Of a stretch of 64,000 nucleotides of DNA, positions 36,336 to 57,683 are shown in pieces (within the stretch, counting starts at the first letter, position 1; each line of letters starts with the position of its first letter). Source of the stretch: an uncultured Gammaproteobacteria bacterium. GTDB taxonomy: Bacteria > Pseudomonadota > Gammaproteobacteria > Steroidobacterales > Steroidobacteraceae. Made by a program: the position numbers and the translations under genes. The notes under the pieces were generated by a model, which saw only the letters and a program-made list of their open reading frames with translations, had not been told where the DNA came from and ran no database searches. The DNA lies in assembly GCA_963798595.1 (NCBI GenBank), contig CAWCTM010000010.1, forward strand, positions 352-64,351, in the 5' to 3' direction.

Positions 36336-36353
36336 ATTGGACTGTGGTCCAAT
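36336..36353. promoter_or_regulatory. palindromic motif ATTGGACTGTGGTCCAAT
   Basis: Perfect 7-bp arms ATTGGAC / GTCCAAT. Lies 134 bp upstream of the start of 35918-36202 (minus strand). Confidence 0.6.
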
Positions 36354-36426
36354 ATCGGCTCAGGCGTGGGTAAAGCGTAGATGGTAGGGCGACAGGCGCA
36401 GGCGTCGGGCCGGGCCGCTTCCGCGG

Positions 36427-36810
36427 TTACTGAGCTCTGCCCAGCTGGCCGGCAAGCTCGATCGCGGCGAACAAGGACGCGTCGTTAATAGGCTTGGGAA
36501 GAAATGCGATCGCGCCAGCAGAAGCGCACTGCTCACGCATTTCTGCTTCGTTGCGCGCCGTGATTATGATAGTCGGTATCCGAACGCCCCTGCGCCCGAG
36601 ATCCTGATGAAGCTCCAAGCCGGTCATTTCCGGCATCTGCAAATCCAGTATCAAGCAATCCGGTACTTCGTGATCGAGCGAAGCGAGAAATTTCCGGCCG
36701 GATTGAAACGTTTTTGCAGCCAAGGCGCGTGTACCTAGCAGCCGGGCCAAAGCCCTAAGCACCGATGGATCGTCATCGACGATAGCAATCCGGGGAGAAG
36801 CCGCAGGCAT
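36427..36810 (-). CDS. single-domain response regulator (REC only)
   Basis: IAIVDDDPSVLRAL...LILDLQMPEMTGLEL...PTIIITARNE...GAIAFLPKPI. Confidence 0.8.
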   Translation of the reverse strand: MPAASPRIAIVDDDPSVLRALARLLGTRALAAKTFQSGRKFLASLDHEVPDCLILDLQMPEMTGLELHQDLGRRGVRIPTIIITARNEAEMREQCASAGAIAFLPKPINDASLFAAIELAGQLGRAQ

Positions 36811-36879
36811 CGAATAGACTATCGTACCTATCGAACGGGTCGGTCGAGTTAGCCCTTAGGCCAACATGAAATGAGACAC

Positions 36880-37494
36880 CTAGGATTTGGCAATCTGAAC
36901 CCCGACTTTCCCAGCTAAACGAACCAGATCAGCTACCGTACGCACACCGAGTTTTTCCATCATCCTGCCGCGATGCACTTTCACGGTCTTTTCCACAGTT
37001 CCCAAATCGGCTGCGATCTGCTTGTTCAGCCTTCCCGCAACAACGTGTGAAAGCACCTCTCGTTCCCTCGGCGTCAAAGTCCCGACCCTAGCTTGGATTA
37101 TGCCAAGCTCGACCCGGGCCTTGCGCGCCGCCTCATCTGCTTGTTCCGCCCGCGCTATCGCGTCCAGCAGAAGTTTGTCGTGAAGGGGCTTCGTAAGAAA
37201 ATCCACGGCCCCGGCCTTCATCGCGTTCACGCTCGTGGGAACGTCACCGTGGCCACTAATAAAAATTATGGGTCGTTGATCTCCGTTCACACCCAGAACA
37301 CGCTGCAGCTCTAATCCGTCCAAGCCCGGCATCGCGACGTCGAATACTGCGCAACCTGGAATTTCGGGATCGTGTTCGCTAAGAAATTCCTCCGCGGACC
37401 CAAACGTTCGAACATCACGGCCGTGAGCCGTCAGCAGTCGCGAAAGTGCTTTCAGCACGCGCGCGTCGTCATCGACGAGAAAAACTGTGAACAT
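36880..37494 (-). CDS. FixJ/LuxR-type response regulator (REC plus HTH)
   Basis: MFTVFLVDDDARVLKAL...AVFDVAMPGLDGLEL...PIIFISGHGDVPTSVNAMKAGAVDFLTKPL...LTPREREVLSHVVAGRLNKQIAADLGTVEKTVKVHRGRMMEKL. Confidence 0.85.
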   Translation of the reverse strand: MFTVFLVDDDARVLKALSRLLTAHGRDVRTFGSAEEFLSEHDPEIPGCAVFDVAMPGLDGLELQRVLGVNGDQRPIIFISGHGDVPTSVNAMKAGAVDFLTKPLHDKLLLDAIARAEQADEAARKARVELGIIQARVGTLTPREREVLSHVVAGRLNKQIAADLGTVEKTVKVHRGRMMEKLGVRTVADLVRLAGKVGVQIAKS

Positions 37495-37731
37495 GTCCCC
37501 CCCGAATCCCACGCTGGCCGTTCAAACCCAACGTTCAATGAAACTTCCATCATCCGAAAGTCCTTACAATCTTTCTCTGAACTGGCCGCGCATCAAAACT
37601 GTGATCGCCGGTGCTTTAGATTGTCCAATCTTTCGCGATAATAGATCATTTCACGTTGGCGTTACATGGTCTTCGAAGAATAGATTAAGGCCCGTATACT
37701 GTGAGGCCTAGGGTACCGCGCGGGGGGGCAG

Positions 37732-39393
37732 ATGAGTGTGGGCTGCATGACGGATCCTCTTTTATCGGTGGCAAACCTGCCGCCGAGGAAGGGGCATCGC
37801 CGGGTCATCTGCGCTTTTGCGATCGTGCTTATCGCTGCGTCGTTGGTCGCGGCTCCGTTTGCCGACACTCAAATGCCAGAGCTCGTCGCATTTGTTCCGA
37901 CGATCGAAGCAGTCATAATCGTCAACGATCTAATCACTGCGATCTTATTGTTCGCGCAATACTCGGTTATTCCGTCACGCGCTATCTTGGTGCTCGCGTG
38001 CGGTTATCTATATACGGCACTGATCGTTGTTCCTCATATTCTCACTTATCCCGGAGCTTTTGCGCCGGGTGGCCTTCTTGGCGCCGGCCTGCAAAGCACT
38101 GCTTGGCTTTATGCGTTTTGGCATTTCGGGCCTCCAGTGGCCATTCTTGGGTACGCTTGTTTGAAAGACGCCAAGGGTCTTGGCATCGCCAAGTCGCCCC
38201 AACTGGTAATTGGTGGTGCCGTCACGGGAGTCGCCTTATTGGTTTGCGGACTTACCCTGTTAGCAACGGCCGGTGAGAACTTTCTGCCTGCCGTCTTTGC
38301 CGACAATCTCCACATCTACAAGCGTCCTGTCCTCTACATCTACTGTACGGTCGTGCTGTTTACGTTGATTTCACTGGTGGTCCTTTGGCTGCGAAAACGT
38401 TCCATACTCGATTACTGGCTCCTGTTAGTGGTTGTTGCCTCGATTGCCGAAGACACACTGACCGTCGCCCTTGTTAGCGCGCGCTATTCATTCGGTTTTT
38501 ACGCTGGTCGCGTGCTTTTGCTTATCACGTCAATGGTAGTGCTGACGCTTCTGCTGTCTGAGATCATAAGGCTTTATACCTCGCTGGCCCGATCAACCGA
38601 ATTGCTGAAGCGCGAGCGAGACAACAAGCTTATGAATCTCGAAGCGATGATGGCCGCGATTATCCATGAAATAAAGCAGCCATTGACCGCGATCTCTGCA
38701 AATGCCGGTGCAGCAATGGCGCTCATCGCGAAAACGCCGCCTGATCTGTACGAGGCCAAGGCGTCGTTGGGAGATGTTATCGATGACAGTCATCGGACCA
38801 GCCAGGTACTGAACGGCGTGCGGTCGTTATTCCGGAGGATTGATAAAGACCGGCAGCCGATCGACCTTAACGAGTTGCTCCTTGAAGTTCTTAAATCAAT
38901 GCAGGGCGATTTTGAGGCACACGGGGTAATAGTCCGCCCTGAGCTGGGTCCCGACATGCCCTTGATTGACGGCAATAAAGGCCAGTTGCAACAAGTTGCT
39001 TTGAACCTCATTCACAACGCTCTGGAGGCGATGGGTGTCGCTACTGCGGCGATCCGGGTATTGCGTCTAACGACTGAACGTCACGGTCACGAAGCGATCA
39101 TGGTTGGTTTCCACGACAGCGGACCTGGAATAGATCCAGAGCAGATAGATGGAATTTTCGACGCGTTCGTTACGACTAAGCCGGAGGGAATGGGTCTGGG
39201 CCTTGCGATCTGTCGTTCGATCATCGAGAACCACGACGGCAAGCTCTCCGCAAGGTCGGATGGCAAAAGCGGCGCGGTGTTTCAGTTCGTTCTGCCAACT
39301 CGCCCGGCAGAAGCACCTGATTACGATTTAAATTTGTATAGCCAACGGTCGCCCGTTGTGAACACCGTGAAAGCCGCATTCGATCGCAATTGA
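37732..39393 (+). CDS. multi-pass membrane sensor histidine kinase
   Basis: About 7 N-terminal TM helices, HisKA box AAIIHEIKQPLTAISANAGAAMALI, and an ATPase part LNLIHNALEAM...DSGPGI...IFDAFVTTKPEGMGLGLAICRSIIENHDGKL. Divergent from the two response-regulator genes. Confidence 0.85.
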   Translation: MSVGCMTDPLLSVANLPPRKGHRRVICAFAIVLIAASLVAAPFADTQMPELVAFVPTIEAVIIVNDLITAILLFAQYSVIPSRAILVLACGYLYTALIVVPHILTYPGAFAPGGLLGAGLQSTAWLYAFWHFGPPVAILGYACLKDAKGLGIAKSPQLVIGGAVTGVALLVCGLTLLATAGENFLPAVFADNLHIYKRPVLYIYCTVVLFTLISLVVLWLRKRSILDYWLLLVVVASIAEDTLTVALVSARYSFGFYAGRVLLLITSMVVLTLLLSEIIRLYTSLARSTELLKRERDNKLMNLEAMMAAIIHEIKQPLTAISANAGAAMALIAKTPPDLYEAKASLGDVIDDSHRTSQVLNGVRSLFRRIDKDRQPIDLNELLLEVLKSMQGDFEAHGVIVRPELGPDMPLIDGNKGQLQQVALNLIHNALEAMGVATAAIRVLRLTTERHGHEAIMVGFHDSGPGIDPEQIDGIFDAFVTTKPEGMGLGLAICRSIIENHDGKLSARSDGKSGAVFQFVLPTRPAEAPDYDLNLYSQRSPVVNTVKAAFDRN

Positions 39394-39402
39394 TGCCGCA
39401 GT

Positions 39403-39511
39403 GGCAGATAACCGCGTCGTGCGGACGAGCGATCTATTTACTCAATCAGCGGAATTGCGGGCAGGGAGCGCGGACCAGGGTCCAATGGGGATGGGCCATT
39501 TTTTGCTGACA
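39403..39511 (+). repeat. about 110-nt intergenic repeat, copy 1 (left palindrome arm deleted)
   Basis: GGCAGATAACCGCGTCGTGCGGACGAGCGATCTATTTACTCAATCAGCGGAATTGCGGGCAGGGAGCGC-GGACCAGGGTCCAATGGGG... is almost identical to 44446-44559, except for loss of GATATT. Confidence 0.8.
39473..39486. promoter_or_regulatory. half-deleted palindromic motif (GGACCAGGGTCCAAT)
   Basis: Same sequence as 44521-44535, but the ATT of the left arm is missing. Confidence 0.4.
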
Positions 39512-39906
39512 TTTTTTTAGCCTCGATCCTAAGGATCGCTTCAAATACTTGGGCGCGCATGTTTAGATCGACCCTCTTGGCTGTGGCGGCCGCTGTGTTT
39601 CTGCAAGTTCAACAGAGAGCTGCGTGGTGATGTCGAACAGATCGGCGATCGTCACGTTGCCCTCCCCAATAAAGGCAGCAAGTCGCGTATTGGGATCGTC
39701 CGTGGGCGTCTGACATCAATCCGCGTGGAGGCGGACTTCGCGCTGGGGTTTTGGGTGATCCCACTTACGACATTGAGGTTGCCGGAGTACCCCGGCGATG
39801 CGCTGAGGGAAGGAAACACGCCGAAACCGCCTGGATTTCACCTGTCATTCGCGACATTTCGGGCAGCTTTGCCTTCAACTTCGAAAAGCTATTGCCGCTC
39901 AACACG

Positions 39907-40295
39907 ATGCGGGAATGTCCGGCGTCGCCCGTCTTGGCTGTAGCGGCAATGGTCGTGATGCTGTGCGCTGGCTGCAGCGGTCGCCGCAGCCAAGGGCTGC
40001 TAATCGCCGTCGCCGAGAACGTCGACCGCGCGCCGCGCGTGCCAGCGCTTGCCGTAACAACCAGACAAAAGTCGACAAAAGACGTGTACGAGACGTTCAA
40101 CGGCGAGCGCGCTGAAAATGTGTCTTTGGCGGCGGTTACAGTTCCCATTCTCCCGACACCGTCCGCAAGATCGGCGAGCCCACCGTGCCACCCGGCGAAG
40201 CGCGCCGGGACTTCGTGACAGTTTCCGCAAGCTATATCGATGCGCATCATTTAACGCCGCAATCTCCTCGGCTACCAAACACGTCGGGTCGGTAA
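39907..40295 (+). pseudogene. DUF900-type alpha/beta-hydrolase lipoprotein, N-terminal fragment with frameshift
   Basis: Lipobox LCAGCSG, then ALAVTTRQKSTKDVYETFNGERAENVSLAAVTVPI. A shifted frame continues DTVRKIGEPTVPPGEARRDFVTVSASYID. The remainder of the protein is absent. Confidence 0.4.
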
Positions 40296-40485
40296 AGTGC
40301 TAGGGTTCTACTGCGCACCGCGCTCGCGTCGCTTAGCGCTTACCGCTGGCTTTGCCTTATGTCGGCTAACAGCCGATTGCTTCTTTCTTTGGGCCGAAGG
40401 CCATGCGAGACTCCTCCGTTTGGAATCATACTTGGAAACTCCATGGCTTTAGATCGCGAGCGGTCCAACAACATGGGGGCGGCCA

Positions 40486-41523
40486 ATGACTGATCTAATG
40501 GGAGTAAGTGGGAGCAAGCGCTTACGATCGCTTTCGTTTGTGACGAGCACCGCGCTCGCGATCGGCCTGGTCACCTCGCTACCCGCCAACTCCTTCGCGG
40601 ATGAAAACGGTATCAGCTTCTGGCTTCCGGGGTTGTTCGGTAGTCTCGCCGCAGTGTCCCAGCAGCCCGGTTGGGCGCTTACGGTCATCAATTACTATGA
40701 CTCCGTGCGAGCGAGCGGCGCCGTCGCTGCTTCACGCGAAATCACGATTGGGCGGTTTAACCCGACAGTCAACGTCAACCTCAACGTCAATGTGCACGCC
40801 AACATTGATGCCGGGCTCATTATTCCCAGCTATGTGTTCGCGACGCCGGTGTTCGGCGGTCAATTAACCCTGGGTATGATGGGACTTGTCGAGAGCAACA
40901 GCACCAATCTGAACGGCACACTTACGCTCGATTCAGGGCCGCTTGCCATTATGCGGCAGGGAAGTATCAGCCAAACAACGACAGGCTTTGGAGATTTGTA
41001 CCCGCAGGCCATTATTCGCTGGAACAATGGCGTTCACAACTGGATGGTCTACGGAACGGGCGATATCCCTGTCGGCGATTATAGTTCGACAAACCTCGCG
41101 AATATTGGCATCGGTCACGGCGCCGTCGACGGCGGCGGAGGCTATACATACTTTAATCCAAAGACCGGCCACGAATGATCGGCAGTGACTGGTTTTACTT
41201 ACAACCTCATCAACCCAAGCACGAACTACCAAAACGGCGTCGACTGGCATCTAGACTGGGGAGCTTCCCAATTCTTATCAAAGCAGTTTCTTGTGGGCGC
41301 AGTCGGCTACTTTTATCAGCAGATCAGCCCCGACAGCGGGTGTGCGCTACAATTGTGCCCCTTCGAATCTGGTGTCATCGGTGTTGGTCCGCAGATCGGG
41401 TACATCATTCCGTTGTGATCGGTGCAGGCCTATGTAAACGCAAAAGCTTATTACGAGTTCGATGCGCATGACCGGCCGTCGGGCTGGACTCGTCCTCCCG
41501 ATCGGCAGTCGCTGATCTCCTGA
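40486..41523 (+). pseudogene. outer-membrane transporter (MetA-pathway / PF13557-like), frameshifted paralogue of 12397-13473
   Basis: FADENGISFWLPGLFGSLAAVSQQPGW...GHE-stop (41176). It continues in other frames with TGFTYNLINPSTNYQNGVDWHLDWGASQFLSKQFLVGAVGYFYQQ, then QAYVNAKAYYEFDAHDRPSGW. Confidence 0.75.
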
Positions 41524-41761
41524 TATTTGGTGGTGCAGCCGCCTAAGAATATAAGAAGAAAGAAAAACGCGATGAACGGACGCATTTCCCCTTACCCCTG
41601 CACCCATCCGGAGGTGTGGCCGAACGTGGTGCCCTCAGTTCAGCATGGGGCTTCGCGACGCGCCAAGCCGCCTCGGGGCTTCGCGACGCGCTAGGCCGGC
41701 TCCACTTTAACATAACCGCTGAGAGGTGCCGCCGCGAGCAAATAGCGGCCAGTATGCCTGG

Positions 41762-42045
41762 TTACATTTGCGCTGGGCGCAATTTTAGCTGCGATAGGCC
41801 CGCCACAACGTTCACCGCCATCGAACCTTCGAGCGATACGGGTTGCAGAGCAACGCTGCGATTCGAACCCCCGACCAGTACGTTGGCGCCCACGCCAACT
41901 CCCAAACCGATATCACCAGAGGCGCCGACATATTCCCCCGCGAGCGCGCCGTGGGGTATTCCTGCCGCCGAGCCGAAGACGGCCCAAGCGAATCTGCCGC
42001 CGCCGCAAAACGCGGGCGCGTTGTTGATGCCGAGGTCGAATACAA
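41762..42045 (-). pseudogene. DUF992 C-terminal fragment
   Basis: The minus strand reads GGGRFAWAVFGSAAGIPHGALAGEYVGASGDIGLGVGVGANVLVGGSNRSVALQPVSLEGSMAVNVVAGLSQLKLRPAQM-stop. The N-terminal half is missing. Compare 35286-35783. Confidence 0.6.
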
Positions 42046-42560
42046 GGCAGCCCTAAGGCTAAGTCCACAATATGCGCCCGCAGCCGCCAATCTCGCCGAA
42101 CTTTACCGGAGGCTCGGGCGGGAAACTGATGCCGAGGCAGTGCTACGAGCCGGCTTAGCTGCATCCCCCCAAGATGCCGGCCTCCATTATGCGCTCGGTT
42201 TAACTCTCGTGCGTTTTAAAAGAATTCACGGCACTTGGTGAGTTAGGTCGCGCTGCCGAAATCGCTCTAGGACAAGCGAGATACACTTATGTTTACGCAG
42301 TTGCGTTAAATTCAGCCGGCCGCCACCGCGAGGCTATGTCGCAACTCACCGCGAATTTAGCTCGGCATCCGAATGATCGCGACACGTGTTGGCGCTGATC
42401 TCATTTAGCCGCGATGCTGGCGACGGGTCTAGAGCGCTCAAGTATGCGGAGCAATTGGCTCAAATCGCGCCGCAGGATCGCGGATTGGCTGCACTTATTG
42501 GAGAGCTTCGGCGGCAGGCAGAAAAGCCGAGCGCGCACTGATCTCAGTGATCGAGGCGGC
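42035..42560 (+). pseudogene. TPR-repeat protein fragment(s)
   Basis: AEVEYKAALRLSPQYAPAAANLAELYRRLGRETDAEAVLRAGLAASPQDAGLHYALGLTLV, followed by stops and further TPR-like text in other frames. No plausible N-terminus. Confidence 0.4.
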
Positions 42561-42918
42561 GCTAATTGCAGACTTTTCCCTGCAGCAGCAGCCAAAATTT
42601 GCTGCGGTGCATGAGTTTGCTGCTGGTCCATTACGACATTACGCGGCGACGCATCAATTTGGTCGCTAACGGAGCGAAGCGGACGTTAAGCCGGGTTTAC
42701 GAGTACACGGCCTGGTTTGGCCCACACAGCGCAGACACAACAACAGGCGCAACTACGAGCGTGCTTGTCAGAAAACGCTGGCGCGGAATTCATCAGGCAG
42801 CACACCGTTGCGAACGGAACCAATTTATTGCGCTCGCCGACAGCGGCTCGCGGCTACTTCCACGGGCTAATCCGACCCATTACGATACTTCCTCGCGGAT
42901 AATCTTCGAGAGGAATTG

Positions 42919-43447
42919 ATGAAAACCTATTTTGTGACGCTGGCTGCCGTGATCGCTGTCGGCGCTGCGACTGGGGCGAACGCCGCCGAAATCGTTACCA
43001 TGAATGCGATTGACGCCAATGGCGTTGGCAAGGAAATCGTCACAATTAGCCTATCCGACAGCGACGGAGGCTTACGAATTTCGCCACAAGTTGCCGGGCT
43101 ACCACCGGGTGATCATGGTTTTCATGTCCACGTAGATCCAGACTGTGGCCCCGGCGCTGGGCCGAACGGCCAGCCAGCAGCAGGCATGGCGGCGGGCGAC
43201 CATTTCGATCCGGCCCACACCGGCAAACATCTCGGCCCCGATGGCGACGGTCACAAGGGCGATCTTACAGTTCTGACCGTTGATGCTAGTGGCAACGCCA
43301 CGACCGCCGCCGTAGCACCGCATCTAAACTTTGGCCGACGTGAAGGGGCACTCAATCATGATCCACGCAGGTGGCGATAATTACTCTGACCAGCCCGCTC
43401 CTTTAGGTGGCGGCGGTGCGCGCATCGCCTGTGGCGTGGTAAAATAA
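42919..43447 (+). pseudogene. sodC: periplasmic Cu,Zn superoxide dismutase with C-terminal frameshift
   Basis: Signal peptide, GDHGFHVHVDPDCG...AAGDHFDP...GHKGDL. Near 43325 the frame changes. The conserved end [38 protein letters not shown]-stop (43445-43447) lies in the +1 frame. Confidence 0.8.
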
Positions 43448-43503
43448 AAGCTGGCTGTTCGCCGCGCGGCGACCGATTCATCCAGCGTTGGCCGGAGACA
43501 ACG

Positions 43504-44415: not shown

Positions 44416-44445
44416 TCCATATGACCTCGCGTCTTTTGCCGCCGC

Positions 44446-44559
44446 GGCAGATAACCGCCTCGTGCGGACGAGCGATCTATTTACTCAATCAGCGGAATTG
44501 CGGGCAGGGAGCGCGATATTGGACCAGGGTCCAATGGGGCCTAGGCACTTTTCCTGACA
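44446..44559 (+). repeat. about 110-nt intergenic repeat, copy 2 (intact palindrome)
   Basis: See 39403-39511. It lies 50-160 nt upstream of the omp25-like gene at 44608. Confidence 0.8.
44518..44535. promoter_or_regulatory. palindromic motif ATTGGACCAGGGTCCAAT
   Basis: Perfect arms. Lies 73 bp upstream of the ATG at 44608. Confidence 0.6.
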
Positions 44560-44607
44560 GTGTCGTGTCCGTTGCGGTTGTAACGGCGTTGAACGATAGG
44601 CGCAGCC

Positions 44608-45324
44608 ATGTTTAGAACAATGACCCTCGCTGTAGGTGCTGTTGCGCTACAGCTTGGCTGCGGTTTTGCTTACGCAGCGGACCTGGAACCGGTACCGGCA
44701 TACGCAGCGCCACCAATTGCCGCGTACAACTGGACTGGCATTTACCTAGGCGCCAACGGCGGATACGCGTTCGGCCAGTCCACGCCGATGGGCCTCTTCA
44801 CCGATAGTTTTTCTGCGTTCAGCATCAACGCGAACGGCTGGCTCGCCGGTGCGACCGTAGGGGCGCAAATCCAGAGCGGCCATGTCGTTATGGGCCTCGA
44901 AGGGGATATCGACTGGATGAATCTCAACGGCTCTTCCCGTGGCACGATTAATTTTAACGGCGCGCCTATCGGCACGGCCACGCTTTCCTCAAGCGTTTCA
45001 GCATTCGGCACTCTGAGGCCGCGTGTCGGTTACGCCATCAATAATTGGCTCATCTTTGCGACGGCCGGCTTGGCCTTTACGGACGAAAGTTCGAACCTCA
45101 CCGGTCCGATCGGGTTCGTTTGTGGCTCCGGCGCTGCCGGCAGTCCGCCGTGCAGCTCTCTGTCGAGTTTCCATCTCGGCTTGTCTGCAGGTGGAGGCGT
45201 CGAATATGGAATCACGCAAAACGTCAGCGCAAGGCTCGAATATTTGTGGATCGGTGCCGGGACGTTCAACACACTCACTGAAAACATCGTTCGGGGAGGC
45301 GTGAATTTCCGTTTTGGCATGTGA
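44608..45324 (+). CDS. Omp25/Omp31-family outer-membrane beta-barrel protein
   Basis: Signal peptide ...GFAYAADLEP, then YNWTGIYLGANGGYAFG...GLEGDIDW...RVGYAINNWLIFATAGLAF...GGGVEYG...RLEYLWI...GGVNFRFGM. Confidence 0.85.
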   Translation: MFRTMTLAVGAVALQLGCGFAYAADLEPVPAYAAPPIAAYNWTGIYLGANGGYAFGQSTPMGLFTDSFSAFSINANGWLAGATVGAQIQSGHVVMGLEGDIDWMNLNGSSRGTINFNGAPIGTATLSSSVSAFGTLRPRVGYAINNWLIFATAGLAFTDESSNLTGPIGFVCGSGAAGSPPCSSLSSFHLGLSAGGGVEYGITQNVSARLEYLWIGAGTFNTLTENIVRGGVNFRFGM

Positions 45325-45395
45325 GGCGGCTAAATACCGTGCCGAGTCGGATGCACGCGTGAGGCCTCACTCACAGCAACCCAATCTCGACGGGC

Positions 45396-45413
45396 TGTGG
45401 ACCACAGTTCAAT
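45396..45413. promoter_or_regulatory. degenerate palindromic motif TGTGGACCACAGTTCAAT
   Basis: Two or three mismatches to the consensus. The extended match CCACAGT.CAATAGGC is shared with 50255-50272. Confidence 0.35.
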
Positions 45414-45491
45414 AGGCTCGGTTTTGCCGCTGACGATGGATCTGGTTTGCACTGACGGACGTGTGATTTGTGTAAGCGTCTCAGGGGCCGA

Positions 45492-45886
45492 ATGGATCGC
45501 AGCCGATTGATAGCACCGGACCAAAAGAGGGCATTTCGTGATCTGTTGTCGGCGGTTAATCCGCTCGGTGCTTCGCGCGGCTCGATGCTCTTACTGTATG
45601 TATCGGCCTTTCTCACGCCCTTGAGAGGACAAATCCGTCGGGGCTACGCGCGGGAGTTGAACATCAATCGTTTTTTTAATGAGCCCGTACATCCGTAGTA
45701 TTGGTGATCGGGCGCGCGAGGGGGCCAGGCTTTCGATTAGTCACCGCAAGACGAATCTACAACTCACGGACGGAAACGGCGATCTTCTTGACGGGTAAGG
45801 GCCATACGACCGCGCAGGTGTATCGAAATTTACGACTAGCCGAGTGGATTTCCGCTGGAGCCACGCTGAGGCGCCACAGGATTTGA
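45492..45886 (+). pseudogene. winged-helix (MarR-like) protein, decayed paralogue of 6344-6712
   Basis: RLIAPDQKRAFRDLLSAVNPL...GYARELNINRFF, then a frame change to ...GFRLVTARRIYNSRTETAIFLTGKGHTTAQVYRNLRL. There is an internal deletion relative to the intact copy. Confidence 0.65.
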
Positions 45887-45888
45887 CG

Positions 45889-45906
45889 GTTGGACCACGG
45901 TCCAAT
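45889..45906. promoter_or_regulatory. palindromic motif GTTGGACCACGGTCCAAT
   Basis: Lies 85 bp upstream of the ATG at 45991 of the decayed omp gene. Confidence 0.55.
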
Positions 45907-49254: not shown

Positions 49255-49266
49255 AGGAGAACCACA

Positions 49267-49986: not shown

Positions 49987-50254
49987 AATTCTTTCACTTT
50001 GCTCGATCGTGTCTGGCGATGAATGCCGCGACTGCCAACGCGCGGCGATGAGGCGGCACTGTATATAGACGCGATCGCAAACACTAGCATGGCTGCAACG
50101 CGCGCCTCTACGCACTCACACAAAATCCCCGCAAAGACAACGGACTACAAAGAACAACGCTACCTCTGACAGCTCTTCAAAACGTATTGGACTGGTCCAA
50201 CTTACGACTTTCAAACTCGAGCAAACTTCGCGCGCGGCATCCGGGCCGGTAGAC

Positions 50255-50272
50255 GTTGGACCACAGTCCAAT
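50255..50272. promoter_or_regulatory. palindromic motif GTTGGACCACAGTCCAAT
   Basis: Lies in the divergent intergenic region between 49570-49986 (minus strand) and 50533-51594 (plus strand). Confidence 0.5.
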
Positions 50273-50532
50273 AGGCCGAATCAAACTATTCGCTGAAACT
50301 GCTTTGCGGAATTTATCGCCCGCAACGGGAAGGAAATTCAAGCGGCGCCGCCGATGAGCGGCAAAGCCGCTGTGCAAATTTTCTCGCGCTGTGAATGACC
50401 TGTCGAATGACTGCCGCCGTCCGATCACACGCTACGCGGCACAGCCCGGAAGGAACTGAAGGCGCTAACGCTTACACAGGCTCGTCGGCAAAATCGTAAT
50501 AACTGCAACGCTCATCTTTTGGGAAGGGGACT

Positions 50533-51594
50533 ATGGAGTCCGACGATCTATCGCACGGTATCGGCCGTCGCGCGCTGATTTCAGCCCTCGTCCTGCTGCC
50601 AGCGCTGCCCACAACACTGCTTTCCTCTCCAGCCCAGGCGGAAACGACGCCGAGCACGCCCCTCGCCTCGTGGAATGAAGGCGCGTCGAAACAGGCGATC
50701 CTCGACTTCGTGCGTGCCACCACTGATCAGGGAAGCCCAAAATTCGTGGCGACTGAAGATCGCGTCGCCACTTTCGATCAGGACGGCACGCTTTGGGTCG
50801 AGCATCCAATCTATACCCAGGTGATCTACTGCCTCGACCGCGTTCCGGCAGTGGTGGAGAAAAAGCCGCAACTCAAAAATGTCGAACCGTTCAAGACCGT
50901 GCTTTCCTGCGACCGCGAGGCGATCGCGAAGCTGCCGCTGCACGACCTCGAAAAGATTCTTGCGGCGACATTGACTGGTATGCCGGTCGAGACGTTCGAA
51001 GCCGAAGTCAAAAAATGGATCGTGTCCGCGAAAAACTCGCGCTGGAAGAGGTCCTTCACCGACCTCGTCTATCAGCCGATGATCGAAGTTCTCCAATATT
51101 TACGCGCCAGCGGCTTCAAGACTTGCATCGTGACCGGTGGCGGTCAGGATTTTGTGCGCGTCTATTCGCAGCGAGTCTACGGCATTCCTCCGGAGCAGGT
51201 TGTCGGTACGATGGGAGGAACGAAATTCGGCTACAACAAGGACGGCATGCCGTTCCTGACCAAGGAGCCGAATTTACTTTTGAACAACGACAACGCCGGC
51301 AAGCCTGAGGGCATTCATCTGATGATCGGCCGACGCCCGCGCGCGGCGTTCGGCAATTCGGATGGCGACCGGGAGATGCTCGAATATACGGGCGCTGGCG
51401 ACGGCGCACGGCTGATGATGCTTGTGCTGCACGATGATGCGCACCGCGAATACGCTTACGGTCCGGCGCGCGGACTTCCCAATAGCAGGATCGGCACTTT
51501 CAGGCCTGCGCTCGACGCCGAGGCGAAAAAGGACGGCTGGAATGTCATCAGCATGAAGAATGACTGGAAACGCATTTTCGCTTTCGATGAATGA
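50533..51594 (+). CDS. HAD-superfamily hydrolase, Tat-type exported
   Basis: GIGRRALISALVLLPALP...AQAE leader. HAD motif I FDQDGTLW. Later IVTGGGQDFV and GNSDGDREML. Confidence 0.8.
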   Translation: MESDDLSHGIGRRALISALVLLPALPTTLLSSPAQAETTPSTPLASWNEGASKQAILDFVRATTDQGSPKFVATEDRVATFDQDGTLWVEHPIYTQVIYCLDRVPAVVEKKPQLKNVEPFKTVLSCDREAIAKLPLHDLEKILAATLTGMPVETFEAEVKKWIVSAKNSRWKRSFTDLVYQPMIEVLQYLRASGFKTCIVTGGGQDFVRVYSQRVYGIPPEQVVGTMGGTKFGYNKDGMPFLTKEPNLLLNNDNAGKPEGIHLMIGRRPRAAFGNSDGDREMLEYTGAGDGARLMMLVLHDDAHREYAYGPARGLPNSRIGTFRPALDAEAKKDGWNVISMKNDWKRIFAFDE

Positions 51595-51646
51595 CCGCAG
51601 TTCCGGGGTCCATATCGGGAAATCGAAGTCGTGGAGAGAACGTGAG

Positions 51647-53143
51647 ATGATCGTGAAGCAGCTGCAGGTGCTGGCATTTGCGCTCTCCGCGTTATTGGCG
51701 CAGACCGCGCTTGCGCAGACGCCGCAGGACAGCCCGCCGCCCGCCGCATCGAATCAACTGCTAAGCGGCGGCGAGCTTGAGGCTCTAGTCGCTCCGATCG
51801 CGCTTTACCCAGATGCCTTGCTGTCGGAAATCTTCATGGCCTCGACTTACCCGCTTGCAGTCGTCGAAGCTGAGCGCTGGGTCGGCAAGAACAAAAACCT
51901 CAAAGGCGATCAACTCAAGGAGGCGCTCGAAAAGCAAGGCTGGGACGACAGTGTGAAGACGCTGACGGCGACGCCGGACGTGCTCGACATGATGAGCGAC
52001 AAGCTCGATTGGACTCAAAAGCTCGGCGACGCGATCCTTGCGCAGCAGGGTGAGGTCATGGACGCGGTGCAGCGACTGCGCAAAAAAGCGCAGGCCAACA
52101 ACAAGCTGACCTCGAACCGGCAGCAGACCGTTACGACGCAGCAGGAGGACGGCAAACAGGCGATTGTCATCGCGCCAACGCAACCGGACACTATCTACGT
52201 TCCCTACTATAACCCGTCGGTGGTTTACGGCAGTTGGTCGTATCCGGCTTATCCGCCCTACTATTTTGGAGCACCCGGATACATCGCCGGCGGCGTCATC
52301 GCGACTGGTGTTGCCTTCGGCGCAGGTTACGCGCTTGGGCGTTGGGTTTCCGGCGGCTATCGCTGGGGCGGCGGCTTTAACTGGGGTGGTAACAACATCA
52401 ATATCAACCGCTCAGTCAACATCGGCAACGTCAGCATTAAAAGCAACAACTGGACGCACAATCCCGCGCACCGGCAAGGTGTGCGCTACAATAACGCCAA
52501 TGTCGCGCAGAAATTCGGCGGCAATCGCAACGCAGGCGGCGCGCAAGATCGTGCGGATTTCCGTGGCCGAACGAGTGGGGCGCAGGCGCTTGGCGGTGGT
52601 AATCGCGCCAATGCCGGCGGCGGCAACCGGGCAAACCTCGGAAATGGGGCTGGGCACCATGCGGCCAATCTCGGCGGCGGCGCGGGTAACAGGACCGCTG
52701 GCCCTCGCGGTGGTGATCGCGCGGGCGGCGGCAACGCATTGGGCAACATCGGCGCGGGCCGATCGGCGGGCCTCGATTCCGCGCGCGGCCGCGCGAGCAT
52801 CGGTGGCGCGGGCGGCGGCTTCCACAGCGGTGGCGCCAGAGCTGGTGGCGGCTCTCGGGGTGGTGGGCGGCACTCGGATGCAAGGCTAAAGCACGACATT
52901 GTCCTTCTCGGACGTCTTAACAATGGCCTTGGCTTTTATGGCTTTACCTATAATGGCGGCGAGCGGCGCTATGTCGGTGTGATGGCGCAAGAGGTACAGG
53001 CAGTGATGCCTGCTGCGGTCACGCGCGGGCGCGACGGCTATCTCCTTGTCTCCTACGACAAGCTCGGTCTGAAGTTTCAGACCTATGACGAGTGGATAGC
53101 GTCAGGTGCGCGGGTGCCAAGCGCCGCCCGAGTTTCGCATTGA
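51647..53143 (+). CDS. DUF3300 protein with Gly/Arg/Asn-rich linker and C-terminal S74-type intramolecular chaperone domain
   Basis: Signal peptide. DUF3300 core LEALVAPIALYPDALLSEIFMASTYPLAVVEAERWV...GWDDSVKTLTATPDVLDMM. Low-complexity region at 52560-52870. The end SDARLKHDIVLLGRLNNGLGFYGFTYNGGERRYVGVMAQEVQAVMPAAVTRGRDGYLLVSYDKLG (52874-53140) resembles the endosialidase/tail-fibre chaperone domain. Confidence 0.8.
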   Translation: MIVKQLQVLAFALSALLAQTALAQTPQDSPPPAASNQLLSGGELEALVAPIALYPDALLSEIFMASTYPLAVVEAERWVGKNKNLKGDQLKEALEKQGWDDSVKTLTATPDVLDMMSDKLDWTQKLGDAILAQQGEVMDAVQRLRKKAQANNKLTSNRQQTVTTQQEDGKQAIVIAPTQPDTIYVPYYNPSVVYGSWSYPAYPPYYFGAPGYIAGGVIATGVAFGAGYALGRWVSGGYRWGGGFNWGGNNININRSVNIGNVSIKSNNWTHNPAHRQGVRYNNANVAQKFGGNRNAGGAQDRADFRGRTSGAQALGGGNRANAGGGNRANLGNGAGHHAANLGGGAGNRTAGPRGGDRAGGGNALGNIGAGRSAGLDSARGRASIGGAGGGFHSGGARAGGGSRGGGRHSDARLKHDIVLLGRLNNGLGFYGFTYNGGERRYVGVMAQEVQAVMPAAVTRGRDGYLLVSYDKLGLKFQTYDEWIASGARVPSAARVSH

Positions 53144-53190
53144 GCGTCTGCATCGACGGCCTGGAATTACGGACCATTAATGAGCATGTC

Positions 53191-54144
53191 ATGAGGAAAA
53201 GCCATCCGTTGCATCACCCGCACCTCGCGCGCCTGACAGCTTCGCTGGCCGCGGCGATGATGTTTTTCGCTTCCGCATCCGTCGCAGTCGCCCAGCTGGA
53301 CTACAAGACGCCGCAAGCCGCTGCTGAAGCACTCATCGTTGCCGTCAAAGACGGCGATGCTAAAGCGATACTGGCCGTCCTCGGCCCCGACGGCGAAGAC
53401 ATAATATCTTCGGGCGACAAGGTCGCCGATGAACAGGCGCGCAAGCGCTTCATCAACTCGTATGACATCAAACATCAGATAACGATGGAAAGCGAGCACA
53501 AAGCCATCTTGATCATCGGCGACAACGATTATCCTTTCCCGATCCCGCTCGAGCGCGTCAAAACGGGCTTGTGGTCGTTCGACACCCAGGAAGGCCGCAA
53601 TGAAATCATCTATCGCCGCATCGGCCACAACGAGCTCCAGGCGATCCAGACCTGTCTCGCTTATGTCGACGCACAATACGACTACGCGGATAAGGATCGC
53701 ACGGGAGCGGGCGGCGGTGTCTATGCCCGGCGCTTCGTCAGCCAAGAGGGCAAGCATGACGGCCTTTACTGGCCAAGCGCCCAAGGCGAGGAAAGCCCGC
53801 TCGGGGAGCTATTCGCGAAGGCGTCGCATGAAGGCTATCGCCCTGACGAAGGGCGCATTCCTTTTCACGGTTATTATTACAAGATCCTGACCGGGCAGGG
53901 GCCCGCCGCGACTGGCGGGACCGCCGACTACATCGTGCACGGCAAGATGATCGGCGGTTTCGCCCTCGTTGCTTATCCGGCGGCTTATCGCAACTCCGGC
54001 GTGATGACCTTCATCGTCAATCACCAAGGCACGGTATTTCAAAAAGATCTCGGACCGGACTCTGCCGATCTCGCCGAAGCCATGACCTCTTTTAATCCCG
54101 GTGCAGGCTGGAAAAAAGTCGATGTGAACGAAGCGGCGAAATAA
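53191..54144 (+). CDS. DUF2950-family secreted protein
   Basis: Signal peptide. KTPQAAAEALIVAVKDGDAKAILAVLGP...YPFPIPL...WSFDTQEGRNEIIYRRIGHNELQAIQTCLAYVDAQYDYA...GYYYKILTGQG...GGFALVAYPAAYRNSGVMTFIVNHQGTVFQKDLG. It sits in the usual partner position after DUF3300. Confidence 0.85.
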   Translation: MRKSHPLHHPHLARLTASLAAAMMFFASASVAVAQLDYKTPQAAAEALIVAVKDGDAKAILAVLGPDGEDIISSGDKVADEQARKRFINSYDIKHQITMESEHKAILIIGDNDYPFPIPLERVKTGLWSFDTQEGRNEIIYRRIGHNELQAIQTCLAYVDAQYDYADKDRTGAGGGVYARRFVSQEGKHDGLYWPSAQGEESPLGELFAKASHEGYRPDEGRIPFHGYYYKILTGQGPAATGGTADYIVHGKMIGGFALVAYPAAYRNSGVMTFIVNHQGTVFQKDLGPDSADLAEAMTSFNPGAGWKKVDVNEAAK

Positions 54145-54184
54145 CTGGCAAGCGACTTCAAGCAAGACCCGGCAGGCAGATCGC

Positions 54185-54634
54185 ATGACAACAGCGCACA
54201 CAGGCCCGGAAAGATTTGAGGTGAGGGTGACGGCGGACAGCCACTTCGGTTGGCTCCGCACTCGATTGAGCCTGGAACGGACAATGATGTCGTGGATACG
54301 GACCGCGGTGTCGTTGATCGGTTTTGGCTTCGCCATCGTGCAGTTTTTTGAGCGGTTGCAACAAATGCCTGACGCGCGCGCGGCCAACTATCCAAAGGCC
54401 CCCGAATATCTGGGGTTGGCTCTGATCGCCAGCGGCGTACTGGCACTGCTCATTTCGATTTGGCAGTACCGCTGGGTAGTTCGCTATATGTGGGGAGCGC
54501 CATTCTCCGCCATTGCCGGCATGAGAAAGGGTGCGACAAGCGAGCAGATGCATTCGCCCGTTATCGCAATCGCGATTCTCCTCACTTGCATCGGGCTGTT
54601 TGCATTCTTCGCCGTATTGTTCCGTCAGGTTTAG
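54185..54634 (+). CDS. DUF202 (YidH-like) membrane protein
   Basis: RTRLSLERTMMSWIRTAVSLIGFGFAIVQFF, plus two further TM helices. Confidence 0.7.
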   Translation: MTTAHTGPERFEVRVTADSHFGWLRTRLSLERTMMSWIRTAVSLIGFGFAIVQFFERLQQMPDARAANYPKAPEYLGLALIASGVLALLISIWQYRWVVRYMWGAPFSAIAGMRKGATSEQMHSPVIAIAILLTCIGLFAFFAVLFRQV

Positions 54635-54693
54635 CGATTTGGTTTCCAGAACCGCGACCGATTTAGCATCCACAACTCAAAAAGGAGATTGAA

Positions 54694-56187
54694 ATGGCGA
54701 AGGAAGGCAAGCCGAACATCCTCATTCTTTGGGGTGACGACATCGGTTGGTGGAATATCAGCTATAACAATCGCGGCCAGATGGGGTACCGCACTCCAAG
54801 TATCGACCGCATCGGCAACGAAGGCGCCACGTTCACCGACTATTATGGCCAGCAGAGCTGCACCGCGGGGCGGGCTGCGTTCATTACCGGCCAAAACCCA
54901 ATCCGTACGGGCCTGACCAAGGTAGGAATGCCCGGCGCGAACGTCGGCATTCGTGCTGAGGACCCAACCATTGCAGAGTTACTGAAGCCGCTTGGCTACG
55001 CCACGGGCCAATTCGGCAAAAATCATTTGGGCGACAAGGACGAATTTTTGCCGACTATGCACGGGTTCGACGAGTTCTTCGGTAATTTGTATCACCTCAA
55101 CGCCGAGGAAGAGCCGGAGCAGCCGGACTATCCAAAAGATCCGGCGTTTAAGAAGCGATTTGGGCCTCGCGGCTTGCTTCACTCTTGGGCGGACGGTAAG
55201 GGGGGACAGAAGATCGAAGATACCGGTCCGCTGACCATAAAGCGGATGGAAACTGTTGATGAGGAGACCACCGAGCACGCGATGGCCTTCATTGAGAAAG
55301 CCAGCAAGGACGGAAGGCCGTTCTTTGTTTGGTACAACACAACTGCCATGCATTTCAGAACCCACTGCGCAGCGAAGCACAAAGGCAAAAGTGGCCAGGG
55401 GGACTATAACGACGTCATGGTCGCCCATGACGAAAACATTGGCAGGATGCTGGCCAAGCTGGACGAACTCGGCATCGCAGACGACACGATAGTTATGTAT
55501 TCGACGGACAACGGGCCGCATTACAACAGCTGGCCTGATGCCGGAATTACCCCGTTTCGCAGTGAAAAGAACACGAATTGGGAAGGCGGCTGGCGTGTGC
55601 CGATCTTTGTTCGCTGGCCAGGCAAGATCAAAGCGGGATTGGTCTTCAACGATATTGCCTCACACCAGGACTGGCTCCCAACCCTTTTGGCTGCGGCCGG
55701 TGAACCCGGTATCTCCGAAAAGCTGCTCGGCGGCCACAAGATCGGGAGCAAGACCTACAAAGTGCACATCGACGGCTTAAACATTTTGCCTTACCTGACG
55801 GGAGAGGCAAAGGAGAGTCCCAGAAAGTATTTTTTCTATTTCAGCGACGATGGTGACCTTCTGGCTATTCGCATGGGCGACTGGAAGATGGTGCTCATGG
55901 AACAGAGAGCCAAGCAGTTATTGTGCTGGTTCGAACCCTTCGTGAAACTCAGGGCGCCGAAAATGTTCAATCTGCGCCGCGATCCGTTCGAGCGGGCGGA
56001 CGAAAACTCAAACACTTATTGGGACTGGCTCATCTCGCACGCCTATTTGCTGTATGGCATGCAGGCGCTGGTGGCCCAACAGATCGATAACTTCGTAAAA
56101 TATCCGCCGCGTCAAAAACCGGCCTCATTCAACCTCGACGCGGTCCTCGCGCAAATCCAGGACGCCGGCGGCGGCGGTCAACATTGA
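54694..56187 (+). CDS. arylsulfatase (type I sulfatase) without a signal peptide
   Basis: MAKEGKPNILILWGDDIGWWN starts directly at the catalytic core after AAGGAG. Motif SCTAGRAAFITG. Paralogue of 22832-24535, which does carry a Tat leader. Confidence 0.9.
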   Translation: MAKEGKPNILILWGDDIGWWNISYNNRGQMGYRTPSIDRIGNEGATFTDYYGQQSCTAGRAAFITGQNPIRTGLTKVGMPGANVGIRAEDPTIAELLKPLGYATGQFGKNHLGDKDEFLPTMHGFDEFFGNLYHLNAEEEPEQPDYPKDPAFKKRFGPRGLLHSWADGKGGQKIEDTGPLTIKRMETVDEETTEHAMAFIEKASKDGRPFFVWYNTTAMHFRTHCAAKHKGKSGQGDYNDVMVAHDENIGRMLAKLDELGIADDTIVMYSTDNGPHYNSWPDAGITPFRSEKNTNWEGGWRVPIFVRWPGKIKAGLVFNDIASHQDWLPTLLAAAGEPGISEKLLGGHKIGSKTYKVHIDGLNILPYLTGEAKESPRKYFFYFSDDGDLLAIRMGDWKMVLMEQRAKQLLCWFEPFVKLRAPKMFNLRRDPFERADENSNTYWDWLISHAYLLYGMQALVAQQIDNFVKYPPRQKPASFNLDAVLAQIQDAGGGGQH

Positions 56188-56319
56188 TTCTTATCTTTCC
56201 CGTTCTCGCGAAGGCTCTGTCGCGCTCATCGCGACAGAGCTTCCGGGAGCGCGTGACTTTATAGATTCGGTTTCGGGCTGAAGCTGACGTGGCCGTTTCT
56301 TGAACACGCGGCGTAGAGT

Positions 56320-56997
56320 TCAGTTCTTCCTGGCGGTGTTCGGCAGATTCTCGGAATTCGTGAGAAATTTGCGTGCGATGCGCGAGGTCAATCCGCGCAT
56401 CAGCAAATACGGCACGAATGCGAGAAGCATCGCAATGATGAGCGCCTCATAAGGATAGAACGCTTTGAAGACGATGATTTGATAGATCGTATCCATCGCG
56501 AGACCCAGCAAGAGAATCCTGGCGGTAGCGTTCATTCCCTCCCGCAACCTGCCGCCGCGCTCGCGAGCGTTTGATATGATGGTCCACGCAAACGGCGAAC
56601 GGCCCGCGCGCGCGTCATAAAGACCCTCCCGGATCGCAACGATCGCGGCCATCGCCGGCTGCAGAATAAAGCGAAACCCAAGTGGCCCGCTCGGTCGTGT
56701 GAGCAGGTTATTCCAGATCCGCTCAATATTTTCGATGCTGACGCCATGCCACGCCACGCCGGCGATCATGAGCAAAATGCTGAGCGTGATGACCACTTTT
56801 GCTAACAGTGCCATCTGTACGGGGGCATCGGTCCTTTCGATGGACCCGGCCCGGCGAAGCTTAGCGGCGGCCGATTTAAACCATTTCAGCATGCGCCTGA
56901 GCCACCGTAGATTACCCCTATGAAAGAAGGACATCAGGTGCTTCTTTTGCTGTTTACACTCGTCAATAGCGCCCCCTTCAGCGCTGGGGTCGGTCAC
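56320..56997 (-). CDS. integral membrane protein, unknown function
   Basis: Four or five hydrophobic segments. A GTG at 56997 overlaps the stop of the upstream ORF (GTGA). The alternative ATG is at 56934. Confidence 0.5.
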   Translation of the reverse strand: MTDPSAEGGAIDECKQQKKHLMSFFHRGNLRWLRRMLKWFKSAAAKLRRAGSIERTDAPVQMALLAKVVITLSILLMIAGVAWHGVSIENIERIWNNLLTRPSGPLGFRFILQPAMAAIVAIREGLYDARAGRSPFAWTIISNARERGGRLREGMNATARILLLGLAMDTIYQIIVFKAFYPYEALIIAMLLAFVPYLLMRGLTSRIARKFLTNSENLPNTARKN

Positions 56998-57347
56998 TCG
57001 CCTCGGACAGAACCTTTGGCTGCCCGCTGCGAGGGCCGGCAGCCTTTAATTTCCGTTTCCATGGAGAAACTTAAGAACTTGCGAATTGCCACCAGTGCCG
57101 CCAGCAGCCCCGCTATCAAAGGCAAGAGCGGCCGTGATGGTCGAGGTCCCGCGCCGACGAGCAAATCAGTCCAAGAAAGATGCCGTGCCCGGTTTCGGAA
57201 CGGAAACGCGAAATCACCGGTCCGGGAACCGCAACGGATGAAAGTCGCCCTAGCCAAGACGATACTGCCAAGGATGATAGCCATCCCAGCGAGTTCGAGG
57301 ACATTTGCCAGCTGATCAACGAAGGCGTGGGCTTGATCTGCCAGCAC
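56994..57347 (-). CDS. DUF1622-like small membrane protein (integrity uncertain)
   Basis: N-terminus VDQLANVLELAGMAIILGSIVLA and C-terminus LLAALVAIRKFLSFSMETEI fit the family pattern. The middle is atypical and an alternative frame (57116-57319) carries IFLGL, so a compensated frameshift is possible. Confidence 0.4.
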   Translation of the reverse strand: MLADQAHAFVDQLANVLELAGMAIILGSIVLARATFIRCGSRTGDFAFPFRNRARHLSWTDLLVGAGPRPSRPLLPLIAGLLAALVAIRKFLSFSMETEIKGCRPSQRAAKGSVRGE

Positions 57348-57480
57348 GCGGCGACCTTTACGAAGTCAGATCAAGAACTCGTGCATTCTGCGCAGTCGGG
57401 CGACGCGGCTCGGCGCCTGCTCGCCGTTGTCCGACCGCGAAGCACACATCGTTTTCAAGCAAATCACCGACCGAGCGACC

Positions 57481-57498
57481 ATTGGACCGTGGTCCAAT
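57481..57498. promoter_or_regulatory. palindromic motif ATTGGACCGTGGTCCAAT, plus extra half-site GGTCCAAT at 57517-57524
   Basis: Perfect arms. Lies 186 bp upstream of the hdeA-like pair starting at 57684. Confidence 0.6.
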
Positions 57499-57683
57499 AT
57501 CGCAATGCGGGATGTCGGTCCAATGTTATTAATATACGGCATCGGCTTTACGTCGAGCGTTCGGAAATGCTTCACTGTTGGTGCGCCTTCTGACCGGTCG
57601 GCGACCTTCCTCCCGGAGGGAGTGGAGACGATCGCGAACCGTCCGCAAGGACGCGTTACGTCGCAAATCTTAGGAGACATCAA

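Follow-up and report, generated by a model that had tools for sequence, protein, structure and literature searches.

A recurrent palindrome and its candidate FixJ/StyR-like regulator in an uncultured gammaproteobacterium

Which protein reads a palindrome that recurs between the genes of an uncultured gammaproteobacterium, and what does it do there? The palindrome, TTGGAC-N4-GTCCAA, lies in a 64,000-nucleotide stretch of DNA from a member of the Steroidobacteraceae (contig CAWCTM010000010.1 of GenBank assembly GCA_963798595.1, positions 352 to 64,351 of the forward strand), here called the window. An initial annotation had taken it for an operator and had proposed a protein of 122 amino acids, encoded at 6344-6712, as its cognate factor. 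The palindrome does look like an operator, but sequence comparison makes it very probable that it belongs to another protein, a FixJ/StyR-like response regulator encoded at 36880-37512 on the minus strand. The gene for this regulator falls within the interval that the annotation reported but is not mentioned there. The direct observations that carry this assignment are the statistics of the motif, its co-occurrence with the regulator in both search directions, a link with the recognition helix of the regulator, a fixed spacing to a -10 element and the recurrence of the targets.

The palindrome and the regulator that accompanies it

The exact core occurs five times in the window (S1 to S5, starting at 36337, 44519, 45890, 50256 and 57482), against 0.01 copies expected, and none of 100 dinucleotide shuffles reaches five. 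A scan allowing two mismatches adds matches at 45397 (GTGGACCACAGTTCAA), 39470 and 3423, the last a probable chance hit. Relative to the copy at 44519, the one at 39470 is without 6 bp (ATATTG) of its left arm, and an extra half-site, GTCCAAT, is present at 57518-57524. The recurrence reported by the initial annotation (five exact copies, a degenerate one at 45396, a part-deleted one and the half-site) is thus real. It had also described the full copies as intergenic, with flanks conserved nowhere but in a 110-nt repeat. Both descriptions hold: all full copies lie between genes called on the source metagenome contigs (ENA ERZ25039470 and ERZ25039481), and the flanks are unrelated between copies except in a 110-nt duplicate (39394-39503 versus 44437-44552). 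A longest-ORF caller (ORF, open reading frame) placed 71 of 121 sites "inside" ORFs, but it over-called spurious ORFs in high-GC DNA; our own genic or intergenic classing was discarded for this reason, and in its place we use the genes called on the source contigs, together with the distance to the -10 element.

The refined consensus is [A/G]TTGGACC-WW-GGTCCAA[T/C], with 7-2-7 or 8-2-8 symmetry. Conservation extends beyond the hexamers to the C and G at positions 7 and 10, to a W-W centre and to R and Y outside the arms. Related loci totalling 1.3 Mb have 166 sites, all with a 4-nt spacer between the hexamers; no other spacer length from 0 to 8 nt occurs. Since the spacer is always 4 nt elsewhere, the copy with arms at 50187-50200, in which it is 2 nt, is probably a former site inactivated by loss of its two central base pairs. 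The three decayed copies of the window, which like the full ones lie between called genes, are in keeping with the many pseudogenes of its island, described below.

One genome per bacterial or archaeal species was scanned for ATTGGACCNNGGTCCAAT, which gave at least 119 stretches, each of at most 8 kb; by our own estimate, which takes equal base frequencies, about 140 chance matches to the 16 specified bases would be expected in 596 Gb, and the 119 listed stretches are a non-random sample of taxa. Among the matches listed, to which all counts in this paragraph refer, the 18-mer is present in genomes labelled with at least ten phyla. The list is dominated by Pseudolabrys and other Alphaproteobacteria, Paraburkholderia/Caballeronia, Binatia, Deltaproteobacteria, Acidobacteria, Rokubacteria and Verrucomicrobiota, with some Bacillota. 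A homologue of the regulator, 45-69% identical, is encoded in 39 of the 119 stretches (tblastn), its carriers including Alpha-, Beta-, Gamma- and Deltaproteobacteria, Verrucomicrobiota, Bacillota, Acidobacteria, Rokubacteria and Binatia. Kinase, regulator, site and single-domain receiver usually follow one another in this order, the site lying 35-110 nt upstream of the start codon of the receiver gene.

The association is also seen in the reverse direction. Eighty metagenome loci, picked by regulator homology alone (47-83% identity, 394 kb in total), contain 26 exact sites, against none in 20 shuffles, and 11 sites with one mismatch, against 0.65 expected from 20 shuffles. Three site positions recur: just 3' of the regulator gene, about 540 nt beyond that gene, and 2.2-2.6 kb upstream of it, where two sites precede the kinase gene. 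The position at about 540 nt falls after the receiver gene, as does S1 in the window, and is also found in loci L127, L133-L135 and L154. Many FixJ-like paralogues of about 50% identity in the regulator-picked loci are without a site.

Among the loci with enough flanking sequence, and counting sites with at most one mismatch, a site accompanies 19 of 35 regulators that have the recognition-helix signature EKT[VI]KVHR and two of 36 that do not (odds ratio 20, Fisher p=5e-6). The presence of the site therefore tracks the DNA-reading part of the protein and not merely its family.

A variant pairing is found in locus L186, where three tandem sites at 2609-2670 have GTAC or GCAC arms (ATTGTACCAAAGTACAAT and similar) and the regulator encoded upstream of them has the helix ERTVKAHR instead of EKTVKVHR. 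It may be a natural change of specificity, and the combination of GTAC arms with an ERTVKAHR helix bears on which helix residues set specificity.

The regulator, with REC and GerE domains, is part of a two-component system that also comprises a single-domain receiver and a MASE4 histidine kinase (Table 1). Its best NCBIfam model is FixJ (NF006900), with a score of 191.7 bits, under the cutoff of 255. Compared with solved structures, it matches StyR best (1YIO, 2e-50), followed by Bradyrhizobium japonicum FixJ (5XSO, 3.5e-40), and the three recognition helices read EKTVKVHR in the window protein, EVTVKVHR in StyR and PRTIEVYR in FixJ. The single-domain receiver is 40% identical to the receiver domain of the regulator itself and retains the phospho-acceptor Asp, the Thr and the Lys positions. 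A domain scan of the window kinase gave no PAS match, and its score with the FixL model is 121 bits against a cutoff of 850. Homologous transmitter modules adjoin the regulator in other loci, where a common transmitter core, usually with an adjoining PAS_3 domain, is combined with MASE1, dCache, 7TMR-DISM or TPR sensors. The sensor domains of the kinases differ, and the signal therefore probably differs between lineages as well.

Promoter geometry and alternative readings

Counted from the last base of GTCCAA, the hexamer TAnnnT starts at offset 23 in 60 cases and at offset 24 in 23 (181 sites, 362 flanks). The remaining downstream offsets have 0-8 TAnnnT each, apart from a separate peak of 34 at offset 0, abutting the site. 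Aligned examples from several phyla have unrelated spacers, followed by TAGATT, TATATT, TACAAT, TAAATA and similar hexamers. Positional bias, which had been set beforehand as a refutation test of the operator reading, is thus very sharp, toward the -10 element. Taking the hexamer as the -10 element (-12 to -7) would place the site at about -51 to -36, ending one base before the -35 position; its predicted centre, about -43.5, is the position of a class-II activator. The -35 regions adjacent to the sites are poorly conserved. In the window, nAnnnT starts 23 or 24 nt past every one of the five full sites, in the direction of the downstream gene.

CTGACA, which lies about 18-20 nt past several window sites, was considered as a second element and rejected; it is not generally enriched (187 sites) and overlaps the weak -10 candidates. 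In loci L017, L022, L024, L059, L113 and L121, the predicted start point is only a few nt away from the start codon of the receiver gene, which suggests that receiver transcripts are leaderless or near-leaderless in several phyla.

What we infer, from the promoter geometry and from the way this family of regulators works, is binding itself, the sign of regulation, the feedback role and the signal. In the proposed mechanism, the MASE4 histidine kinase would phosphorylate the regulator, which would dimerize, each GerE helix-turn-helix reading one TTGGACC arm. Bound at about -51 to -36 and abutting a weak -35 region, the dimer would recruit RNA polymerase in the manner of class-II activation. The genes activated would be those for exported and envelope proteins, i.e., p94 and DUF992, the Omp25-like porin, the row of HAD, DUF3300, DUF2950, DUF202 and sulfatase genes, and the HdeA-like pair. 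Once induced, the receiver would compete for the phosphoryl groups of the kinase, so that the response is damped; it resembles the receiver domain of the regulator itself. The receiver is the most conserved predicted target of the system elsewhere and probably provides negative feedback. Phosphate-sink receivers offer a parallel, as does the receiver-like FixT of Caulobacter, an inhibitor of FixL.

Several points weigh against this assignment or narrow it. Sixteen of the 35 EKT[VI]KVHR homologues have no site with at most one mismatch, many of their contigs being short. In the window, the divergent region between the regulator and kinase genes has no full site, only a half-site at 37623, and the receiver gene has no full site immediately ahead of it; this organism thus shows no evident autoregulation. 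The -10 candidates of the window are weak, matching nAnnnT only, except for TAAAAT at S1, although weak predicted -10 elements are expected of activator-dependent promoters. Every link between regulator and site is by association, activation is preferred to repression from geometry only, and the placing of sites relative to coding DNA was judged in the 64 kb of this organism.

The last of these uncertainties that concerns sign leads to the alternative that survives best, which we nevertheless regard as unlikely: that the same regulator binds the palindrome, but chiefly for repression or anti-activation, or binds it in the unphosphorylated form. Unphosphorylated FixJ of Rhodopseudomonas palustris is reported to repress nif promoters (PMC13327599), StyR represses from extra sites (PMC2442086), and the half-site at 57518 runs into the predicted -10 element of the hdeA promoter. 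The full site, in contrast, never overlaps the -10 element, and its end, one base before -35, is the usual place of an activator; the poor conservation of the adjoining -35 regions is likewise what activator-dependent promoters would show.

That a different factor binds the site is less probable again, be it the 122-residue protein of the initial annotation, whose gene lies on the minus strand, or an unlinked TetR-, GntR- or CRP-type regulator. A decayed copy of the gene for the 122-residue protein (45492-45886) does lie between two sites, and similar palindromes are not unique to GerE proteins, given that the TetR-type FadR of Thermus reportedly prefers a TTRNACYNRGTNYAA-like palindrome. The protein has no Pfam or NCBIfam match, however, its homologues are absent from all 119 motif-bearing stretches among the matches listed, and the intact unit of omp and 122-residue genes (6344-7526) has no upstream site, so that this candidate is unlikely; the decayed copy looks like a target rather than a regulator. 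Clustering of the genes adjacent to sites gives the REC-GerE regulator as the sole recurrent transcription-factor family, and the site follows the recognition-helix signature of that regulator.

Two further candidates were rejected. A CRP/FNR (FixK-type) box, suggested at first by the TTG...CAA symmetry, would have TTGA-N6-TCAA where the core is TTGGAC-N4-GTCCAA, and no CRP-family gene recurs beside the sites. The low-oxygen lxa regulon of Burkholderia came into consideration as many Paraburkholderia carry the site; the lxa motif is FNR-like, TGA-N6-TCA, and different.

A mobile or structural repeat (repetitive extragenic palindrome, bacterial interspersed mosaic element or similar to a miniature inverted-repeat transposable element) or an RNA hairpin acting as terminator or processing site is highly improbable: the arms could pair into a 7-bp stem with a 4-nt loop, the 110-nt duplicate carries two copies and the island is rich in transposases and pseudogenes, but the sites share no flanking sequence other than the -10 element at its fixed distance, what is conserved across phyla is the sequence and not its pairing through compensatory changes, the stem is not followed by a T-run as a rule, no match at the sites attains the gathering score of an Rfam family, the palindrome precedes the predicted start point, so that its own promoter would leave it untranscribed, and the two centre bases of the 7-2-7 symmetry could not form a loop. 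The preference of the initial annotation for an operator over a mobile element is therefore upheld; the sites are not embedded in a conserved mobile unit of greater length.

Targets, related modules and other features of the window

The FixJ/StyR-like regulator would thus act on the genes downstream of the sites, which in the window code for exported or envelope proteins, as the initial annotation had pointed out (Table 1). For a survey of targets elsewhere, sites were oriented by their -10 element, the first downstream ORF was taken, and 80 of these were scanned against Pfam. Single-domain receivers account for 16 of the 80 and are the most frequent genes directly downstream of sites in other phyla. 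DUF3300, FGE-sulfatase and sulfatase genes recur, as does the kinase operon; the other targets are varied and include NhaA and other Na+/H+ exchangers, cytochrome bd, superoxide dismutase and transporters. Rows of DUF3300, DUF2950 and sulfatase genes, FGE-sulfatase genes and HAD genes are located downstream of sites in Pseudolabrys, Desulfobacterales, Binatia and others. By this recurrence, the window row of HAD, DUF3300, DUF2950, DUF202 and sulfatase genes after 50256 is a conserved target. The window has the recurrent set and, beyond it, the Cys-rich/DUF992 pair, the Omp25-like porin and the HdeA pair. In L127, a site is followed after 133 nt by a gene for a p94 homologue. Counterparts of the Omp25-like porin and the HdeA pair were not found in the fetched loci, and these targets may be peculiar to this lineage.

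Some carriers are in culture, among them Sinorhizobium medicae WSM419, Paraburkholderia phymatum and Agrobacterium pusense. The whole module is present on plasmid pSMED01 of S. medicae WSM419 (239000-250000, L211), where sites precede the sulfatase, HAD, receiver and kinase genes and the regulator homologue is encoded at about 243.5-244.0 kb. On pSymB of S. meliloti HM006 the order is kinase - regulator - site - receiver, and an HAD gene has a site of its own. An A. pusense plasmid carries the cassette with weaker sites. DUF3300 and DUF2950 are on record only as uncharacterised proteins, secreted or with signal peptides, that are reported to be induced in root nodules (PMC4653623).

Taken together, these loci raise the possibility, for and against which we find the balance about even, of an undescribed signalling cassette common to many phyla. 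It would combine a swappable sensor and a conserved, usually PAS-linked kinase core with an EKT[VI]KVHR regulator and a decoy receiver induced by that regulator; the operator and its geometry would be unchanged from Bacillota to Alphaproteobacteria, and the core regulon would be the exported DUF3300-DUF2950-sulfatase/FGE module. If so, the cassette would give a first regulatory handle on the nodule-induced DUF3300 and DUF2950 proteins. It would also be a natural case in which DNA specificity is retained while sensors are swapped, with feedback by a regulator-induced decoy receiver and with identifiable helix residues that set specificity. Full-text literature searches with several spellings of the motif returned only primers and unrelated regulators and no description of it; within the literature searched, the pair of regulator and operator appears to be undescribed. 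An uncharacterised FixJ-like subfamily of soil, sediment and plant-associated bacteria thereby gains a candidate operator, promoter architecture and regulon. The site is long, near-invariant and easily scanned for, which makes prediction of the regulon possible genome by genome, and the co-regulated DUF3300, DUF2950, sulfatase, FGE, HdeA-like and porin genes suggest a response directed at the envelope.

The 110-nt duplicate (39394-39503/44437-44552) begins directly after the stop codon of the kinase gene and carries a site. This suggests that the porin gene once directly followed the kinase gene and that about 5 kb (39504-44436) have since been inserted or rearranged. The island at 43504-48443 contains pseudogenes, among them a truncated alcohol dehydrogenase, the decayed omp paralogue and the decayed copy of the 122-residue gene, and also transposase genes. 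Two FGE-sulfatase-like stretches (11140-12029 and 48354-49248) are paralogous and 74-82% identical; the second is inside the motif-rich island and looks fragmented. The two source contigs represent strain variants that differ by indels and frameshifts, for instance in the sulfatase and DUF3300 genes. Compared with plasmid sequences by megablast, the part from 36 to 58.5 kb matched only an IS3 transposase and short fragments. A partial tRNA-like match at 5852-5907 (Rfam tRNA, 30.9 bits, model positions 9-63) is possibly what remains of a tRNA at an island edge. Short repeats at 26692-26998, 28191-28263 and 30739-30904 (73-168 nt, 75-89% identical) are unrelated to the palindrome. At 62605-64000, a 228-bp tandem repeat of at least 6.1 copies, 99% identical, runs off the end of the window; neither strand keeps a reading frame open throughout, and T is strongly favoured over A.

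Table 1. Sites, candidate -10 hexamers, two-component genes and predicted targets in the 64-kb window. Distances to genes run from the edge of the site to the start codon; offsets are those of the hexamer from the last base of the core.
Feature	Coordinates	Strand	Remarks
S1, full site	36336..36353	-	exact; ATTGGACTGTGGTCCAAT; faces minus-strand p94 and DUF992 genes; about 134 nt to start codon at 36202
S1 hexamer TAAAAT	36312-36307	-	offset 24
S1 targets, p94 (GCG_CRPN Cys-rich protein, 35918-36202) and DUF992 (35286-35777)	35286..36202	-	
Single-domain receiver	36427..36810	-	adjoins regulator; proposed feedback decoy or phosphate sink
FixJ/StyR-like response regulator (REC + GerE helix-turn-helix)	36880..37512	-	Pfam families; recognition helix VEKTVKVHR; proposed cognate factor
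Partner histidine kinase (MASE4 membrane sensor + HisKA + HATPase_c)	37732..39393	+	domain matches
Decayed site	39470..39486	+	6 bp of left arm deleted; inside 110-nt duplicate after kinase stop codon
S2, full site	44518..44535	+	exact; ATTGGACCAGGGTCCAAT; 73 nt upstream of Omp25-like gene
S2 hexamer CAGTGT	44558-44563	+	offset 23
S2 target, Omp25-like beta-barrel porin	44608..45324	+	
Degenerate site	45396..45413	+	2 mismatches; precedes decayed copy of 122-residue gene
S3, full site	45889..45906	+	exact; GTTGGACCACGGTCCAAT; precedes decayed omp paralogue
S3 hexamer AAAGAT	45929-45934	+	offset 23
Palindrome with 2-nt spacer, ATTGGAC-TG-GTCCAAC	50186..50201 (arms 50187-50200)	.	operator arms
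S4, full site	50255..50272	+	exact; GTTGGACCACAGTCCAAT; precedes HAD-DUF3300-DUF2950-DUF202-sulfatase row
S4 hexamer GAAACT	50295-50300	+	offset 23
S4 target row, exported HAD hydrolase, DUF3300, DUF2950, DUF202, sulfatase	50533..56187	+	
S5, full site	57481..57498	+	exact; ATTGGACCGTGGTCCAAT; 186 nt upstream of HdeA-like pair
S5 hexamer CAATGT	57521-57526	+	offset 23; overlaps half-site 57518-57524
S5 targets, two HdeA/HdeB-family genes	57684..58303	+	

Comparison with known systems

The initial annotation had recognised in the palindrome none of a list of described boxes (CtrA, FixK, Irr, LexA, EcfG and PhoB). We concur, and the site of FixJ proper, TAAGTAATTTCCCTTA, is different too (PMC4999443). 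The box of DosR (DevR), the NarL-family regulator of a mycobacterial stress regulon, is TTSGGGACTWWAGTCCCSAA (PMC2275270) and resembles the palindrome in its GAC-N4-GTC core, W-rich centre and outer TT/AA. The arms differ, being GGGAC in the DosR box and TTGGAC(C) here, as do phylum and regulon, and DosR is a distant homologue of the regulator (3C3W, 6.6e-11). Among other dimers with a GerE-type helix-turn-helix, LuxR and TraR bind dyads of 18-20 bp, the lux and tra boxes, which lie near -42.5 as class-II activator sites, and NarL binds heptamers (TACYYMT) in a 7-2-7 arrangement. The palindrome combines a NarL-like 7-2-7 symmetry with a centre near -43.5 like that of the lux and tra boxes, and its sequence is unrelated to theirs; LuxR-type proteins are, moreover, ligand-gated and not phosphorylated.

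The likeness to FixL/FixJ/FixT lies in the best NCBIfam model of the regulator and in the make-up of the system, i.e., a kinase, a REC-GerE regulator and a small feedback protein; a FixT homologue, RPA4249, is known from R. palustris (PMC13327599). The regulator differs from FixJ proper in its score below the cutoff, in the window kinase without a haem-PAS domain and in the sequence of its proposed site. The fixK or nif targets of FixL/FixJ are not among the targets here, and none of the genes called in 34.6-64 kb matches the CRP/FixK or NifA families.

StyR, of the StyS/StyR system for styrene catabolism in Pseudomonas, is the closest solved relative, and its recognition helix has TVKVHR in common with that of the regulator, preceded by EV in StyR and by EK in the window protein (EVT versus EKT). 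The phosphorylated StyR dimer binds an inverted repeat (STY2) at about -40 from the start point and activates transcription (PMC2442086), much as proposed here. Its targets, like those of the related TodS/TodT system, are genes of aromatic catabolism, whereas the targets here code for exported or envelope proteins. The STY and tod boxes, which we take to be ATAAACCATGGTTTAT and a tod variant of it, would have an inner ACC-N2-GGT and a 16-bp geometry in common with the palindrome, and would differ from it in the outer bases of the arms, TTGG in the palindrome and ATAA in those boxes. StyS and TodS are double kinases, in contrast to the single-transmitter MASE4 or PAS kinases found here, and the receiver gene, which forms part of the cassette in this system, is what sets it further apart from both StyS/StyR and TodS/TodT.

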